Shown: positions 4,947 to 17,933 of the stretch, one piece after another
Layout: each line of letters begins with the position of its first letter
Position numbering within the stretch: the first letter of the stretch is position 1
Notes under the pieces: model-generated
Databases searched by the model: none
Seen by the model: the letters and a program-made list of their open reading frames with translations, nothing else
What the model was told of the DNA's origin: nothing
Assembly: GCA_963807645.1 (NCBI GenBank)
Contig: CAWECO010000009.1
Coordinates: 131-64,130, forward strand
DNA length: 64,000 nucleotides
Reading direction: 5' to 3'
DNA from: an uncultured Gemmatimonadales bacterium
Lineage (GTDB): Bacteria; Gemmatimonadota; Gemmatimonadetes; Palauibacterales; Palauibacteraceae
Program-made: the position numbers and the translations under genes

Positions 4947-4990
4947 TTTGCAACCAGGAGGTCGTCGGTTCGATTCCGATCGGCTCCACT
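4947..4990 (+). mobile_element. tRNA-Ala(TGC) 3' fragment, attR-like site 1
   Basis: tttgcaaccaggaggtcgtcggttcgattccgatcggctccact contains anticodon loop TGC, T-arm GTCGG-TTCGATT-CCGAT and acceptor strand CGGCTCCA (U70/A73 Ala identity). The 5' half is absent. Confidence 0.9.
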
Positions 4991-4993
4991 TCA

Positions 4994-5020
4994 AGAAAGG
5001 CTCGTAAACCGGGCCTTTCT
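4994..5020 (+). terminator. Rho-independent terminator-like hairpin after tRNA fragment 1
   Basis: agaaaggctcg-taaac-cgggcctttct. Confidence 0.7.
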
Positions 5021-5095
5021 GCTTCCCGATTTCGAGACCAATCACGGATCATCTTGCACGTTTGAACCTGCGTCTCCCACAGCTCTTCTTCCCGG

Positions 5096-6544
5096 TCAGT
5101 CGACCGGCGTTAGACTGATGTAGGCGGGGATAGAGACACTGAGACTGGGCACGTCGAGGATTGCGCTCGCGTAACCGCTCAGGCGACCGTCTTGCAGTCG
5201 CAGCATCAAACGGATTTGATGTTCTGGCGCTCCCTCGGGCGTCAAGCCGGGCACGACACCACTCAACTCCCCACGGAGTTCACCCTTCGTGTTGAGCGTG
5301 ATATTGGTGAGCAGATGGCGCTCGTCGTTCGCGATGCGGACGATTACCTGCTCCTCTACCTCAAGCTCCATGGGCACGGATCCGCACGGCGTGCCGATCG
5401 TACCTCTCCACCGTCCTGTCCACGCCTCCTCCGGCTCGTACGGGGTGCGAAAGATCTGCGTGTAACGGGCCCGAGACAGCCGTCCGCTCTCACCCGCCGC
5501 GGGCACCAGGAAGTCCCGGATCCGATCGGCGACTTCGTCGGCCAGGCTCGAAGTCTGATTCGTGAGAACCACTATGACCAGGCTCTCAGGGGGTAATACG
5601 ACCAGGTGGGAATTCGCTCCCGCGATTCTGCCGTTCGAGACGTGAGAACGAGCCGTGGTCCACCACCCATTCCTGAAATAGCCCTCGCTGGGATCGCCGC
5701 CCGGGCGTATGGATAGCGATCCAGGTCCATCATGGTTCGATTTGAGGTGTGCGAGGTGGAACATCCCATGACGCAGGACGTCCTCCACGGACGCGTAGAG
5801 TCCCAATCCGCCCTGTGGCATGAGCTGCTCGTTCGGCAGCGGGCTTCCTTCGTTCGTGTAGCGGACGGCGTATGACTCAAGTCGCGTGGAATCCAACCAG
5901 GATGTGCTGTGCGTCATCCGCAGGGGCTTGAAAACCAACTCCTGAAGAGCCCCCTCGAAGTCCCTGCCGGTCTTCGCCTCGATGACTGCCTGGAGCACTC
6001 CGAATGAGTTGTTGGAGTAGTCGAACACCTCGCCCGGCGAAAACGCCACCAGAGAAGGGTATCCCGCGTAGCAGCCGGGGATCGACGTTTTGGAGTCGGA
6101 GAGCGTAACCCAGCCGTGCGGCACCCCCGCCGTGGAAGCGAGCAGGTCGTCGACCCGCACGTCCTCCAGGTACCCGAGAGGATCCCAGGGTCTCACCGCA
6201 GGACCCAGGAGCTCTGCAACTCGGGTCTGGTGGTCGAGCTCGCCTCTTTGCACGAGAGCGAGAGCCGCGGACGCCGTAATCGACTTCGACATCGACCCGA
6301 CAGCGTAGAGAGTCGTGGTCTCCGCGGGGCGCCGCGCTTGACGATCGGCCCACCCAATCGCCTCCAGCCACACGATCTCGCCGTCCCGCGCCACGCCCAA
6401 CGTTAGCGAAGGAGGGCCCCTCTCTGAAATGAGCTCGAAGATCTCTCGGCGTAGCGGAGCCAGCCCCTCGGAGGGAGCGACCACGGTCTGCACCGGAACC
6501 TCCTGACTCAGGAGTGCCAGTATGAGAGTTGCTGTGAAGTTCAT
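5096..6544 (-). CDS. Serine hydrolase, beta-lactamase class C-like family
   Basis: SxxK (GSMSKS), YSN and GGLGLYASVED motifs. ATG at 6544 (MNFTATLILALL). Confidence 0.85.
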   Translation of the reverse strand: MNFTATLILALLSQEVPVQTVVAPSEGLAPLRREIFELISERGPPSLTLGVARDGEIVWLEAIGWADRQARRPAETTTLYAVGSMSKSITASAALALVQRGELDHQTRVAELLGPAVRPWDPLGYLEDVRVDDLLASTAGVPHGWVTLSDSKTSIPGCYAGYPSLVAFSPGEVFDYSNNSFGVLQAVIEAKTGRDFEGALQELVFKPLRMTHSTSWLDSTRLESYAVRYTNEGSPLPNEQLMPQGGLGLYASVEDVLRHGMFHLAHLKSNHDGPGSLSIRPGGDPSEGYFRNGWWTTARSHVSNGRIAGANSHLVVLPPESLVIVVLTNQTSSLADEVADRIRDFLVPAAGESGRLSRARYTQIFRTPYEPEEAWTGRWRGTIGTPCGSVPMELEVEEQVIVRIANDERHLLTNITLNTKGELRGELSGVVPGLTPEGAPEHQIRLMLRLQDGRLSGYASAILDVPSLSVSIPAYISLTPVD

Positions 6545-6639
6545 CGGGGGATTGGACGGCCCGGACACGGAGAAGGTTGGTGGGAGGGCTCCGTCACCCG
6601 GCGCTTCGCTCTCGCCAGGGAGTTCGATGAGCTCCCAAC

Positions 6640-6749
6640 AAACTGTCACAAAAGTGTCCCAGCGCGAGCACGCGTGAACGTGCCTGATCTGGCGCAGAAC
6701 TGACCGAATCTGGCGTCAGCAAGCGCCAGCTGGCGTCAGCTGGCGGATG
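6640..6749 (+). repeat. Arm-type repeat pair plus ~10-bp periodic CTGGCGTCAG-like array (possible RDF/Xis sites)
   Basis: aaactgtcaca/aaagtgtccca at 6640-6661. Then ctggcgcagaa, ctgaccgaat, ctggcgtcag, caagcgccag, ctggcgtcag, ctggcggatg at 6689-6749. Confidence 0.55.
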
Positions 6750-16072: not shown

Positions 16073-16200
16073 ACTTCCGAGCGGTGTTGTGCAGGAGCAG
16101 CACTCGGACTACGCTGGCGATGCGATGACTCTACCAGGGGAGCGTACGCGCCGCTGGTGGTCACATTCACACGCCTTTCCTCGCCATCGGAGTCGAACCC

Positions 16201-16830
16201 ATGAAGCTGGTCATCTTCGGATCCACCGCGGGAACAGGCCGCGAGCTCCTCGAGCAGGCGCTCGAGCAGGGCCACGAGGTATCGGCATTCGCCCGAACGC
16301 CGGAGAAGATCGACGACCTCGAATACCCCAACTTGCAGGTGATTCAAGGCGACGTCCTCGATTCGGACGCCGTCGCGGCAACCGTCGCGGGACAGGAGGC
16401 GGTGCTCTGCACCATTGGGGCGGGGGCGGGGCGCACGAGCCTGCGTGAGGACGCGACCCGCAACATCGTTAGGGCAATGGATACGGCGGGGGTTCAGCGG
16501 CTCATCTGCCAATCGTCTCTCGGAGTCGGTGACAGCCATGCCAACCTCGGCTTCTTCACCAAGCACGTGGTCGTCGGCCTCTTTCTGCGCCACGCCTTTG
16601 CCGACCACGAGCGCCAGGAAGCCGTCATCAAACAGTCCTCGCTGAAGTGGACCATCGTTCGTCCTCCCCACCTGCTGGACACGCCGCGGACCGGAGTCTA
16701 TCGGCACGGCTTTGCCCCCACCGCGAGGGACATCAAGGGACAGATCTCGCGTGCCGATGTCGCGGACTTCATGCTGAAGCAGCTGGCGGACGACAGCTAC
16801 GTGCAGAAAACGCCTGGAGTGTCGTACTGA
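16201..16830 (+). CDS. NAD(P)H-binding atypical SDR (flavin reductase/BLVRB-like)
   Basis: MKLVIFGSTAGTG, WTIVRP, ISRADVADFML. Confidence 0.9.
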   Translation: MKLVIFGSTAGTGRELLEQALEQGHEVSAFARTPEKIDDLEYPNLQVIQGDVLDSDAVAATVAGQEAVLCTIGAGAGRTSLREDATRNIVRAMDTAGVQRLICQSSLGVGDSHANLGFFTKHVVVGLFLRHAFADHERQEAVIKQSSLKWTIVRPPHLLDTPRTGVYRHGFAPTARDIKGQISRADVADFMLKQLADDSYVQKTPGVSY

Positions 16831-16842
16831 ATTCGGGTGCTC

Positions 16843-16884
16843 AATGTCTCGCTTCGCTCGGTGACGATTCCGGTCGGCCCCACT
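16843..16884 (+). mobile_element. Degenerate tRNA-Ala 3' fragment 5 retaining the second hairpin of the T-loop insertion
   Basis: aatgtctcgcttcgctcg-gtga-cgattccggtcggccccact. It is followed by gacccgcc, similar to the aacccacc after copy 2. Confidence 0.75.
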
Positions 16885-16891
16885 GACCCGC

Positions 16892-17933
16892 CTACCCTGA
16901 CGCACAGATCCGGTCGATCTCCACGAGCTCGTCGTCCGACAGCGGCGGACCATTGGCGGCCGCCAGGTTCTCCAGGAGCTGTTCGACCGAACTGGCACCG
17001 ACGATCGCACTCGCAACCCGGCCGTCGGGCCTCTGCCGGATCGTCCACGCAATCGCCAGCTGGGCCAGCGACTGCCCCCGGCGGACGGCCATCTCCCGGA
17101 GGGCCCGAACCCTGGTCAGCGCTTGGTCGGTGACCTGACTGGGGGTCAGCGCCCCGGAGTAGCCGTCGTCCCTGCCGGCGCGCGATCCCGGCGGGATTCC
17201 GTCCAGATATCGATCCGTGAGGAGCCCCTGCGCAAGCGGAGAGAATGCGACTACACCCATTCCAGCATCAGCCGCCGCGGAGATCAGCTCATCTTCGATC
17301 CACCGGTCGAACATGTTGTGCTTGGACTGGTTCACGAGCAGCGGAACGAAGCCGTGGGTCGCGACGCAGGCAACCGCGCGCCGGGTCTGATCCGCGTCGT
17401 AATTGCTGATCCCGGGATAGAGCACCTTGCCCATCCGCACGGCGGAGTCCAGCGCCCCCATCGTCTCATCCAGCCGAGTGAAGGGGTCGGGTCTGTGGTG
17501 GTAGAAGACGTCCACGTACTCGACCTGCAGCCGTCGGAGGGACTGGTCGAGGCTCGCCAGGAGATACTTCCGAGACCCCCCATCTCCGTAGGGTCCCTCC
17601 CACATCAGGTATCCGGCCTTCGTGGTGATCGCGATTTCGTCGCGAGGCAGATGCTTCAGGATCTCTCCCGAACCGCTCCTCTGCCGATCCCGGCGGCGGG
17701 CCGTAGTTGTTGGCCAAATCGAAGTGGGTGACGCCGCGGTCGAAGGCCGCAAAGACGATCTTCTTGCAGACATCTTCGTCGGCTTCCGCGCCAAAGTTGT
17801 TCCAGCACCCGAAGCTGACTACGGGAACCGTCAAGCCGGATGTACCGAGCCGACGGTACGCCATACCTCGGAAGGTGGCGCTCTCATCTCCTGTGGAAGT
17901 TGTCAACGCGGCACCCCTCGCGATCGCGCGCAT
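16892..17933 (-). CDS. Aldo/keto reductase (L-glyceraldehyde-3-phosphate reductase-like), frameshift near 17690
   Basis: YRRLGTSGL, THFDLANNYGPPPGSAE, TTKAGY, SLDQSLRRL, FSPLAQGLLT. Confidence 0.85.

Follow-up and report, generated by a model that had tools for sequence, protein, structure and literature searches.

A variable gene island most likely built by serial integration at tRNA-Ala(TGC) in an uncultured Gemmatimonadota bacterium, and a conserved two-hairpin module in its tRNA-derived repeats

Integrases that target tRNA genes fall into sublocation classes, and islands of the Islander type are known from such targets. In the accretion and mobilization of streptococcal integrative and conjugative elements, cis-mobilizable elements (CIMEs), i.e., integrase-less blocks with att repeats, can be moved by the integrase of a related element. 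Integrons are defined by IntI, attI and Pc together with cassettes ending in attC (R''-L''...L'-R', GTTRRRY). At the Escherichia coli tyrT locus, tRNA-linked repeats form tandem downstream units that each end in a copy of the tRNA 3' end; to our knowledge, these units lack a two-hairpin module of the kind described below and do not bound any cargo on the kilobase scale. The locus presented here resides on a stretch of 64,000 nucleotides from an uncultured Gemmatimonadales bacterium (bases 131-64130 of contig C9; the whole stretch analyzed is referred to as the window), in which same-strand fragments of a tRNA-Ala(TGC) gene separate blocks of accessory genes. The respective assembly, termed G000, comprises 3.23 Mb on 9 contigs with 65% G+C.

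With CIMEs this locus shares integrase-less blocks located between att repeats, but a helper element is missing in G000. As in integron arrays, co-oriented, small and mostly promoter-less units lie between structured repeats; however, the repeats are tRNA-derived, and the units reach up to 18 kb and contain several genes, which lie in both orientations. An earlier note on this DNA, made from the sequence alone, had termed the array integron-like, a designation we do not retain, as nothing of the IntI/attI/attC logic is apparent: the array lacks an integrase, and no GTTRRRY/RYYYAAC pair was seen in the module by eye, no attC model having been run. The fragments start in the anticodon loop (45-48 nt) or in the T-loop (20-30 nt), in agreement with known crossover sublocations.

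In the tycheposon islands of Prochlorococcus, newer elements push older ones inward, and fragmented integrases as well as scattered partial tRNAs are present (bioRxiv 10.1101/2020.12.28.424599). Judging from the part of that preprint considered here, the tRNA anchor, serial integration, niche cargo such as uptake receptors and the rare and transient nature of intact elements are common features, whereas the array in G000 stems from a different phylum, lacks the hallmark genes (integrase plus replication module), includes some very small blocks (1.8 kb, one gene) and consists of fragments that are often split by the module. Partial tRNA genes left by integrating elements have been described as well (van der Gulik et al., 2023; PMC9897764). 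There, according to the sections drawn on here, direct repeats of the tRNA 3' part flank inserted DNA just as in G000, while the present locus is distinguished by at least ten copies at one site, mixed fragment types and a conserved insert at T54/C56; the terms "hairpin" and "T-loop" do not occur in the main text of that article.

In our view, the repeats most likely represent attachment-site scars of a site-specific integration hot spot at tRNA-Ala(TGC). An element that contains a copy of the 3' part of the tRNA would recombine with the gene, whereby the incoming copy would restore a full tRNA and the old 3' end would be shifted downstream. Repeated rounds, accompanied by integrase loss, deletions and unequal crossing-over between repeats, may have led to a region of at least 55 kb split into gene blocks by at least ten co-oriented tRNA fragments, of which window positions 4946-16884 would be the distal part. 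The array matches a known kind of island, i.e., a tRNA-anchored island formed by serial site-specific integration (tycheposon or Islander type): G000 features an intact tRNA gene at one end (provided that contigs C5 and C9 are linked, see below), co-oriented 3' repeats and variable cargo with breakpoints at these repeats. A tyrosine integrase beside the att site is absent from G000 but occurs in related genomes, intact in G008 and as fragments in G012 and G013.

The five same-strand copies of a core proposed in the earlier note were confirmed. The 20-nt core, CGATTCCGATCGGCTCCACT, occurs exactly at window positions 4971, 6783, 6873 and 13142 and with two mismatches at 16865, all five copies being located on the plus strand; 0.02 matches are expected by chance and none of 100 dinucleotide-preserving shuffles reached five. 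Within the window, ARAGORN and Rfam detected neither a tRNA nor any other known RNA. The intact tRNA-Ala(TGC) gene resides at C5:272790-272863 and not, as had been presumed, to the left of the window, where only 130 contig bases exist. The core matches the 3' end of this gene exactly, corresponding to its final 20 nt plus two trailer bases, so that the copies are indeed fragments of a tRNA-Ala 3' end. Genome-wide, sites with up to two mismatches number ten, all on the plus strand and confined to the tail of C5 and the head of C9 (tRNA-Ala(TGC) itself, C5:287727, 289580, 307722 and 310626 and the five window copies). With an eleventh copy bearing three mismatches at C5:310716, 36 nt short of the contig end, C5 holds five more same-strand copies downstream of the intact gene, and the array is therefore larger than the five copies originally listed. 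The remaining matches in the genome at three to four mismatches comprise tRNA-Ala(GGC) and dispersed chance matches. As all ten sites are co-oriented and restricted to C5 and C9, the repeat belongs to one tRNA locus in one orientation and is not dispersed over the genome on both strands.

Sequence reading and self-BLAST indicated matches to the tRNA of 45 nt for copy 1, 48 nt for copy 2, 20 nt plus a separate left piece of 15-16 nt for copy 3, 24 nt for copy 4 and 20 nt with two mismatches for copy 5. The left extension of copies 1 and 2 (45-48 nt) reaches the TTTGCAA anticodon loop, and copies 3 and 5 have additional sequence in common left of the core. Three types can be distinguished. Type A copies (C5:287699, window 4946 and 6756) start in the anticodon loop and extend to the discriminator base, while type C copies are short with 24-30 nt (C5:310616, window 13138). 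Type B copies consist of a piece of the variable loop/T-stem 5' strand up to T54, a 43-nt insert and the part from C56 to the 3' end (C5:289508, 307651 and 310659, window 6814, and a degenerate one at window 16832). The insert in copy 3 also explains an interval of 11 bp without content that had been reported between copies 2 and 3: it is the spacer of a separate unit. The module splitting copies 3 and 5 had not been mentioned at all in that account.

Beyond the tRNA, the 3' end together with 63 nt of terminator-like flank (C5:272845-272927) recurs with 90% identity at C5:307722-307804, 35 kb downstream of the first occurrence and behind a type B copy, such that the repeat extends past the tRNA. 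On contig C38 of G012, ARAGORN reports a tRNA-Ala(TGC) for a type A fragment plus an arm of CTGGCG repeats; this arm bears a faint likeness to the tRNA 5' half and may be a decayed full-length copy. The G+C content in the repeat region is 0.57-0.66 compared to about 0.65 for the genome.

Comparison with relatives reveals the borders of the island and the variability of its content. From window positions ~16892 and ~24900 onwards, flank genes occur in conserved order in five sister species with 74-78% identity, and the same range applies to the flank genes at window 17000-29000 in G006 and G007. The block encoding DUF4920, a TonB-dependent receptor and a zinc-type dehydrogenase, on the other hand, is 94% identical in G006 and 95% identical in G007 and has been exchanged between species recently. 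Copy 5 is positioned exactly between DNA of 89% (SDR-like gene) and of 78% identity (aldo/keto reductase) and thus represents the distal border of the island; in G013, a type B copy is found ~160 nt from the aldo/keto reductase gene. In G006, copy 4 is joined straight to window ~16086, the 2.9-kb amidohydrolase/porin block being absent, and neither G006 nor G007 has a CotH block separating the repeat from the DUF4920 block. G007 displays tRNA-Ala followed, in this order, by the terminator-like hairpin term1, an unrelated 1.1-kb gene, a fragment and the DUF4920 block. Only 1.6 kb separate tRNA-Ala from a type B copy in G010 compared to 35 kb in G000; in both genomes, a near-copy of the tRNA's own downstream flank follows the type B copy. 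The right flank and copies of the tRNA 3' part are located on a single contig in G010 (C14, which also carries the intact gene) and in G012 (C38). Cargo therefore differs among species and, as detailed below, among samples, several breakpoints coincide with tRNA-fragment copies, and gene order between the cores varies rather than being uniform. Accordingly, the blocks behave as separable cassettes, as the earlier note had proposed.

Environmental comparisons relied on assembled contigs from four metagenomes of sediment or salt-marsh origin (X1, X3, X6, X7; four studies), and low or zero depth of a block in a single run was counted only alongside joints or assemblies of relatives. Coverage of the hydrolase cassette was confined to X1 and X3, its depth in X6 and X7 being near zero. 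Conversely, X6 and X7 contain the CotH and amidohydrolase blocks, which are nearly absent from X1 and X3 (depth of the CotH block 0-2.1 per bin), and the DUF4920 block occurs in all four metagenomes. Four different repeat copies are joined to its left end, i.e., 6891->8628 (X1), 16883->8628 (X3), 4992->8628 (X7) and 13166->8633 (X6), each joint consisting of the tRNA-fragment core, a linker of 17-20 nt and then the same cassette end. As the last 18 nt of C5 equal the start of the 20-nt linker into window 8628 in X1 and X3, the C5 end most likely also leads into this cassette. This points to a population with more than one arrangement and supports linkage of C5 and C9, and from the linker, the shared repeats and the relatives we infer that the C5 end and C9 form one locus. 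The existence of at least two paths into the cassette at window 8628 and the frequent 1-nt indels relative to environmental contigs could be taken to mean that the array is an assembly artefact, i.e., a chimera of strain variants collapsed or mis-joined at the repeat, but such an origin is hardly conceivable, given that the 130-kb contig C9 spans all five copies and that fragment-bounded blocks also appear in independent assemblies of five sister species and in contigs from four studies.

Pfam analysis of 59 open reading frames (ORFs) from the C5 tail and the C9 head corroborated the cargo previously named for the window, namely the serine hydrolase, CotH (a fragment), DUF4920, the TonB receptor (two ORFs), the zinc-type dehydrogenase, Amidohydro_1/OprB and the SDR-like protein. 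Coordinates of all window features are compiled in Table 1. The C5 part of the island contains successive beta-propeller paralogues and two hydrolase cassettes in tandem, in addition to an 18-kb block encoding Usp, GNAT, two radical-SAM proteins, a TonB C-terminal protein, VKOR, an avidin-family protein, a ParA-like ATPase, a CGGC-sigma-70 fusion and a TonB-dependent receptor, followed by an FG-GAP/ASPIC gene. The avidin-family protein and the CGGC-domain/sigma-70 fusion are encoded at C5:295229-295927 and 299720-300985. When 15 unannotated array ORFs were compared with PHROGs, a single match to a family without assigned function and no mobility function resulted.

Table 1. Features of the tRNA-Ala(TGC) fragment array in the window, from left to right
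Feature	Position in window	Strand	Basis or remark
Copy 1, type A tRNA-Ala(TGC) 3' half, anticodon loop to discriminator base	4946..4990	+	45 nt identical to gene
Terminator-like hairpin term1, directly after copy 1	4995..5019	+	
Serine hydrolase, 517 aa	5096..6649	-	Pfam Beta-lactamase fold, PF00144
P arm, conserved element end abutting copy 2, with repeated CTGGCG / GGCGTCAGC words	6700..6755	+	
Copy 2, type A tRNA-Ala 3' half	6756..6803	+	48 nt, 97.9% identity
Copy 3, type B: variable-loop/T-stem piece, 43-nt two-hairpin module, T-loop-acceptor 3' end	6814..6892	+	Module: covariance-model match at 6826-6874, 31.6 bits
term1 hairpin following copy 3	6896..6920	+	
CotH block; CotH fragment ORF 7700-8311	6921..8627	+	Pfam; right end is a truncated P-arm remnant, ~8600-8627
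DUF4920 / TonB-dependent receptor / zinc-dehydrogenase cassette	8628..13137	.	Pfam
Copy 4: 20-nt core preceded by ACAG (last 4 nt of module)	13138..13161	+	Right end of dehydrogenase cassette; also in G006
Amidohydrolase/OprB-porin block	13162..16085	+	Pfam Amidohydro_1/OprB
NAD(P)-binding SDR-like gene, 209 aa	16201..16830	+	Pfam; 89% identity in G006
Copy 5, degenerate type B: partial module plus core with 2 mismatches	16816..16884	+	Partial module: 22.6 bits
Aldo/keto reductase, first gene of conserved flank	16892..17794	-	77-78% to G006, G007, G013

Several duplications are evident within the island. The 1.8-kb hydrolase cassette is present in three copies across both contigs with 98.7-99.3% mutual identity, two of them in tandem (C5:286058-287725 and 287869-289536, 98.7% identical). 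Directly left of copy 4, a tandem duplication of 442 bp (window 12259-12699 and 12695-13134, 95% identical) corresponds to the 5' part of the zinc-dehydrogenase gene, which is single in G006. Together with tandem units of 83-126 nt behind several tRNAs, the tandem hydrolase unit and the 442-bp duplication would suit an origin by local duplication only, in which slippage and unequal crossing-over would have made the repeats without any mobile element, similar to those downstream of E. coli tyrT. We regard this as very improbable, because unrelated cargo between the copies would be left unexplained, as would the element-specific flanks that move with the fragments (term1 and term2, two P-arm types); it is largely refuted by the contrast of 94-95% and 74-78% identity and by integrase genes or remnants at the site.

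Turning to the integrases themselves, Pfam, PF00589 and tblastn searches confirmed that the intervals between the cores do not encode any. In G000, PF00589 yielded three matches, all outside the array, and tblastn with three integrase queries retrieved C1:183884-184267 only. The latter, a catalytic-domain fragment with 50% identity to a fragment from G012, is the only comparable remnant in G000 and converges on a module-bearing, proline-type tRNA fragment (C1:184377-184431), for which no matching intact tRNA gene was called in this assembly. In G008, a 433-aa tyrosine integrase directly follows tRNA-Ala and term1. In G012, a type A copy is followed by a truncated catalytic domain and a further copy by an Arm-DNA-binding fragment, and in G013 an N-terminal integrase fragment lies beside a type B copy. 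With these genes and remnants at the same site, tyrosine integrases would have made the joints, and mobilization in trans, as put forward in the earlier note, is plausible; the blocks of G000 may thus still be movable in this way. The G008 integrase was considered as a common mobilizer and rejected, since among 16 genomes of the genus it is restricted to G008 and a 50-aa fragment in G002; words of the module were not found beside it. Its near-private occurrence indicates that intact elements are rare and transient.

Element-specific ends accompany the fragments. The term1 hairpin, the recurrence of which after copies 1 and 3 had been noticed before, follows four fragments in G000 and the intact tRNA-Ala in G007, G008 and G014. 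An end of ~170 nt with repeated CTGGCG words abuts type A copies in G000, G006, G007, G012 and G013, with different cargo beside it among those genomes. The flanks travelling with the fragments comprise term1 versus term2 and two types of P arm. The P-arm CTGGCG / GGCGTCAGC words may constitute arm-type integrase sites.

Some observations weigh against serial integration as the origin of the array or limit what can be derived from its assembled order. Searches of the G000 array with Pfam, PF00589, tblastn and PHROGs returned no gene for an integrase, an excisionase, a relaxase or replication, and two block borders, window 8628 (in this assembly) and window ~16086, are devoid of a tRNA fragment. 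Unequal crossing-over between homologous sequences could account for both the tandem mini-units and the three near-identical copies of the hydrolase cassette, with no need for an integrase. The sample probably holds at least two haplotypes, so the assembled order may be one of several, and joints that skip blocks or go back fit excision, a different cassette order or tandem copies equally well. Finally, split genes do not provide evidence for decay, as single-base indels distinguish the window from environmental contigs (positions 8436, 10530, 13803, 14139-14238 and 16468): the TonB-dependent receptor, which is divided between ORFs at window 9284-10501 and 10245-11636, and the "fusion" ORF of amidohydrolase and porin (window 13823-16072) are probably assembly errors or strain-specific frameshifts rather than signs of decay.

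With regard to the age of the insertions, the earlier note had described core matches that shorten and decay from left to right and had concluded on an age-ordered array with the newest part on the left. The first statement holds roughly (45 nt, 48 nt, 20 nt plus a piece, 24 nt, and 20 nt with two mismatches). As to the second, the most decayed copy, copy 5, abuts the conserved flank, which fits the oldest copy being located farthest from the tRNA, but decay is otherwise non-monotonic, with one mismatch at C5:287727, none in later copies and three at C5:310716. In combination with the recent multi-copy hydrolase cassette, this leaves a strict age gradient unsupported.

The island type itself is known; what is new here is a conserved, covarying two-hairpin module inside tRNA-derived loops. 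The module of ~45 nt splits about half of the tRNA-Ala copies at the T-loop position (T54/C56). Beyond tRNA-Ala, sequences similar to the 43-nt type B insert closely follow tRNA-Leu(TAA), -Pro(TGG), -Ser(CGA) and -Ser(TGA); another lies ~190 nt behind tRNA-Arg(CCT), and one more in a fragment resembling tRNA-Met at the beginning of C8. In relatives, partial 5' copies that precede tRNA-Gly and tRNA-Ala(GGC) genes also carry the module at the D-loop position (16/17), often as tandem units. The elongator tRNA-Met gene is located at C3:452563-452636, such that its 3' end forms the exact end of contig C3, and a module-split 3' half of that tRNA-Met is situated 1.2 kb into C8 (C8:1190-1290); apparently, assembly was interrupted here by a second hot spot.

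An alignment of 22 copies displays two hairpins linked by nearly invariant words, with GTAGTTCGCA and TGCTCAATGTC as the unpaired ones. A covariance model identified 13 copies in G000 at E <0.01 and 15 at E up to 0.1; across the family, the module was present in 14 of 41 sampled genomes and 7 of 20 genera with 2-24 copies per genome. Among 97 distinct copies, 96.6% of cells are paired compared to 83.7% after shuffling, and changes on both sides affect 113 cells compared to 32 (neither value was reached in 500 shuffles), in an alignment that was fitted to the covariance model and is therefore biased towards structure, although MAFFT/RNAalifold gave a concurring result. Shifting the pairing partners abolishes pairing. 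An RNA formed from the tRNA strand was considered as well and not adopted, as among 1025 cells G-T/T-G (13) and A-C/C-A (18) are equally rare and do not favor RNA over a palindrome at the DNA level.

In a sample of 104 distinct copies with flanks, which represents selected loci and is not unbiased, 51 are placed in T-loops, 14 in D-loops, 19 directly before a tRNA-Pro 3' fragment and 20 elsewhere (including variant T-loops and loops of a non-tRNA hairpin), such that at least 84 of 104 reside in or beside tRNA-derived sequence. We read the module as a structured element lodged in loops of tRNA-derived att sequences. The unit behind tRNA-Arg(CCT) shares only CGGGGTCATTCTTC (14 nt) with the gene and has its own, compensated T-stem (GCAGG/CCTGC versus GCGCG/CGCGC in the gene), showing that it was not copied from the local tRNA, and at both tRNA-Ser loci the left pieces do not match the Ser T-stem. 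Such non-local T-stems would fit miniature elements that arrived from elsewhere with their own gene end and recombined within the last bases of the tRNA. In G044, a member of another genus, contigs C25 and C17 carry arrays of at least six and at least three co-oriented sites, at each of which a conserved arm, the module and a tRNA-Pro 3' fragment are combined; this fragment has a T-loop that is either intact or filled with a second, unrelated GC-rich structured insert of ~60-70 nt, a pattern that would fit small elements inserting secondarily into loops of att fragments.

Another possibility is that module-bearing pseudo-T-arms are the active sites of an undescribed hairpin-guided system. They would resemble folded attC sites or the attP of CTX, or else an 80-130-nt mini integrative element equipped with its own copy of the last tRNA bases; the blocks would be captured in between, and classical integrases would be bystanders. 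The strong structure in 97 copies and the nearly invariant unpaired words would be in line with this proposal, as would the tRNA-Arg(CCT) unit with its compensated T-stem, the kilobase-spaced same-strand arrays of module-bearing sites in other genera and the units of spacer, left piece, module and tRNA 3' end that follow tRNA-Leu, -Pro, -Ser and -Met after 5-31 nt, often in tandem. We nevertheless consider it unlikely, because no candidate enzyme accompanies the module (Y1_Tnp and GIY-YIG were checked), cassette ends of the tRNA-Ala array at copies 1, 2 and 4 are free of it, and the empty or differently filled T-loops of G044 make the inserts look secondary rather than the recombination site proper. 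Somewhat more credible, though still doubtful, is the wider notion that the modules are widespread, undescribed miniature elements that home to loops of tRNA copies (T54/C56, D-loop 16/17) or move as 80-130-nt units with a gene end of their own, and thereby define a hairpin-guided gene-capture system.

Links of the module to known elements were sought. REP/RAYT systems comprise a palindromic repeat with a GTAG head that is mobilized by a RAYT gene flanked by repeats. The module resembles REP/REPIN sequences in starting with GTAG/GTAA and a short GC-rich palindrome and in its multi-copy, patchy distribution, but differs in being tied to tRNA-derived sequence and in lacking the inverted-pair layout of a REPIN. 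A connection was rejected, as the single Y1_Tnp gene of G000 (C7:394085-394405) has no module within ~700 nt on either side and as Y1_Tnp does not co-occur with the module (9 of 14 module-positive versus 13 of 27 module-negative genomes). Y1_Tnp proteins (IS200/RAYT-like) are encoded in 22 of 41 genomes of the family, mostly once, and about half of the genes sit 6-7 kb into a contig, which suggests a domesticated syntenic gene and not an active transposase. A GIY-YIG nuclease was likewise dismissed, the only match (C2:128853) being far from the arrays. Assignment to a known RNA family failed: the window yielded no Rfam 15 match at the gathering threshold, and for five module-rich loci searched at E up to 1 the strong matches were tRNA genes only, the rest being weak, sub-threshold and overlapping them. 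With regard to a phage or plasmid carrier, viral contigs gave no match to one exact pattern, a search of little weight. The exact-pattern scan of genome contigs returned 58 loci, i.e., 32 true modules, 20 matches to an unrelated conserved gene and six chance matches; the 20 unrelated ones fall into a highly conserved, seemingly protein-coding stretch in records of many genera titled mostly as Bacteroidota. A few term searches of titles and abstract beginnings in the open-access literature retrieved nothing describing the module, which does not prove its absence in print.

Taken together, the locus illustrates how members of a little-studied phylum take up and rearrange accessory genes, among them genes for outer-membrane receptors, hydrolases and redox enzymes, at one and the same tRNA gene; the shuffling is apparent across sister species as well as sediment metagenomes of several studies. 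From a practical point of view, the fragments break assemblies (contigs C3, C5 and C8 each have an end at or close to one) and may be annotated erroneously as tRNA genes. The module could matter more: if it is an active site or a mobile mini-element, it would point to an undescribed mechanism of recombination or insertion. Should the wider notion prove true, the modules would seed or mark recombination sites at which cassettes accumulate, distinct from both integrons and classical att sites.

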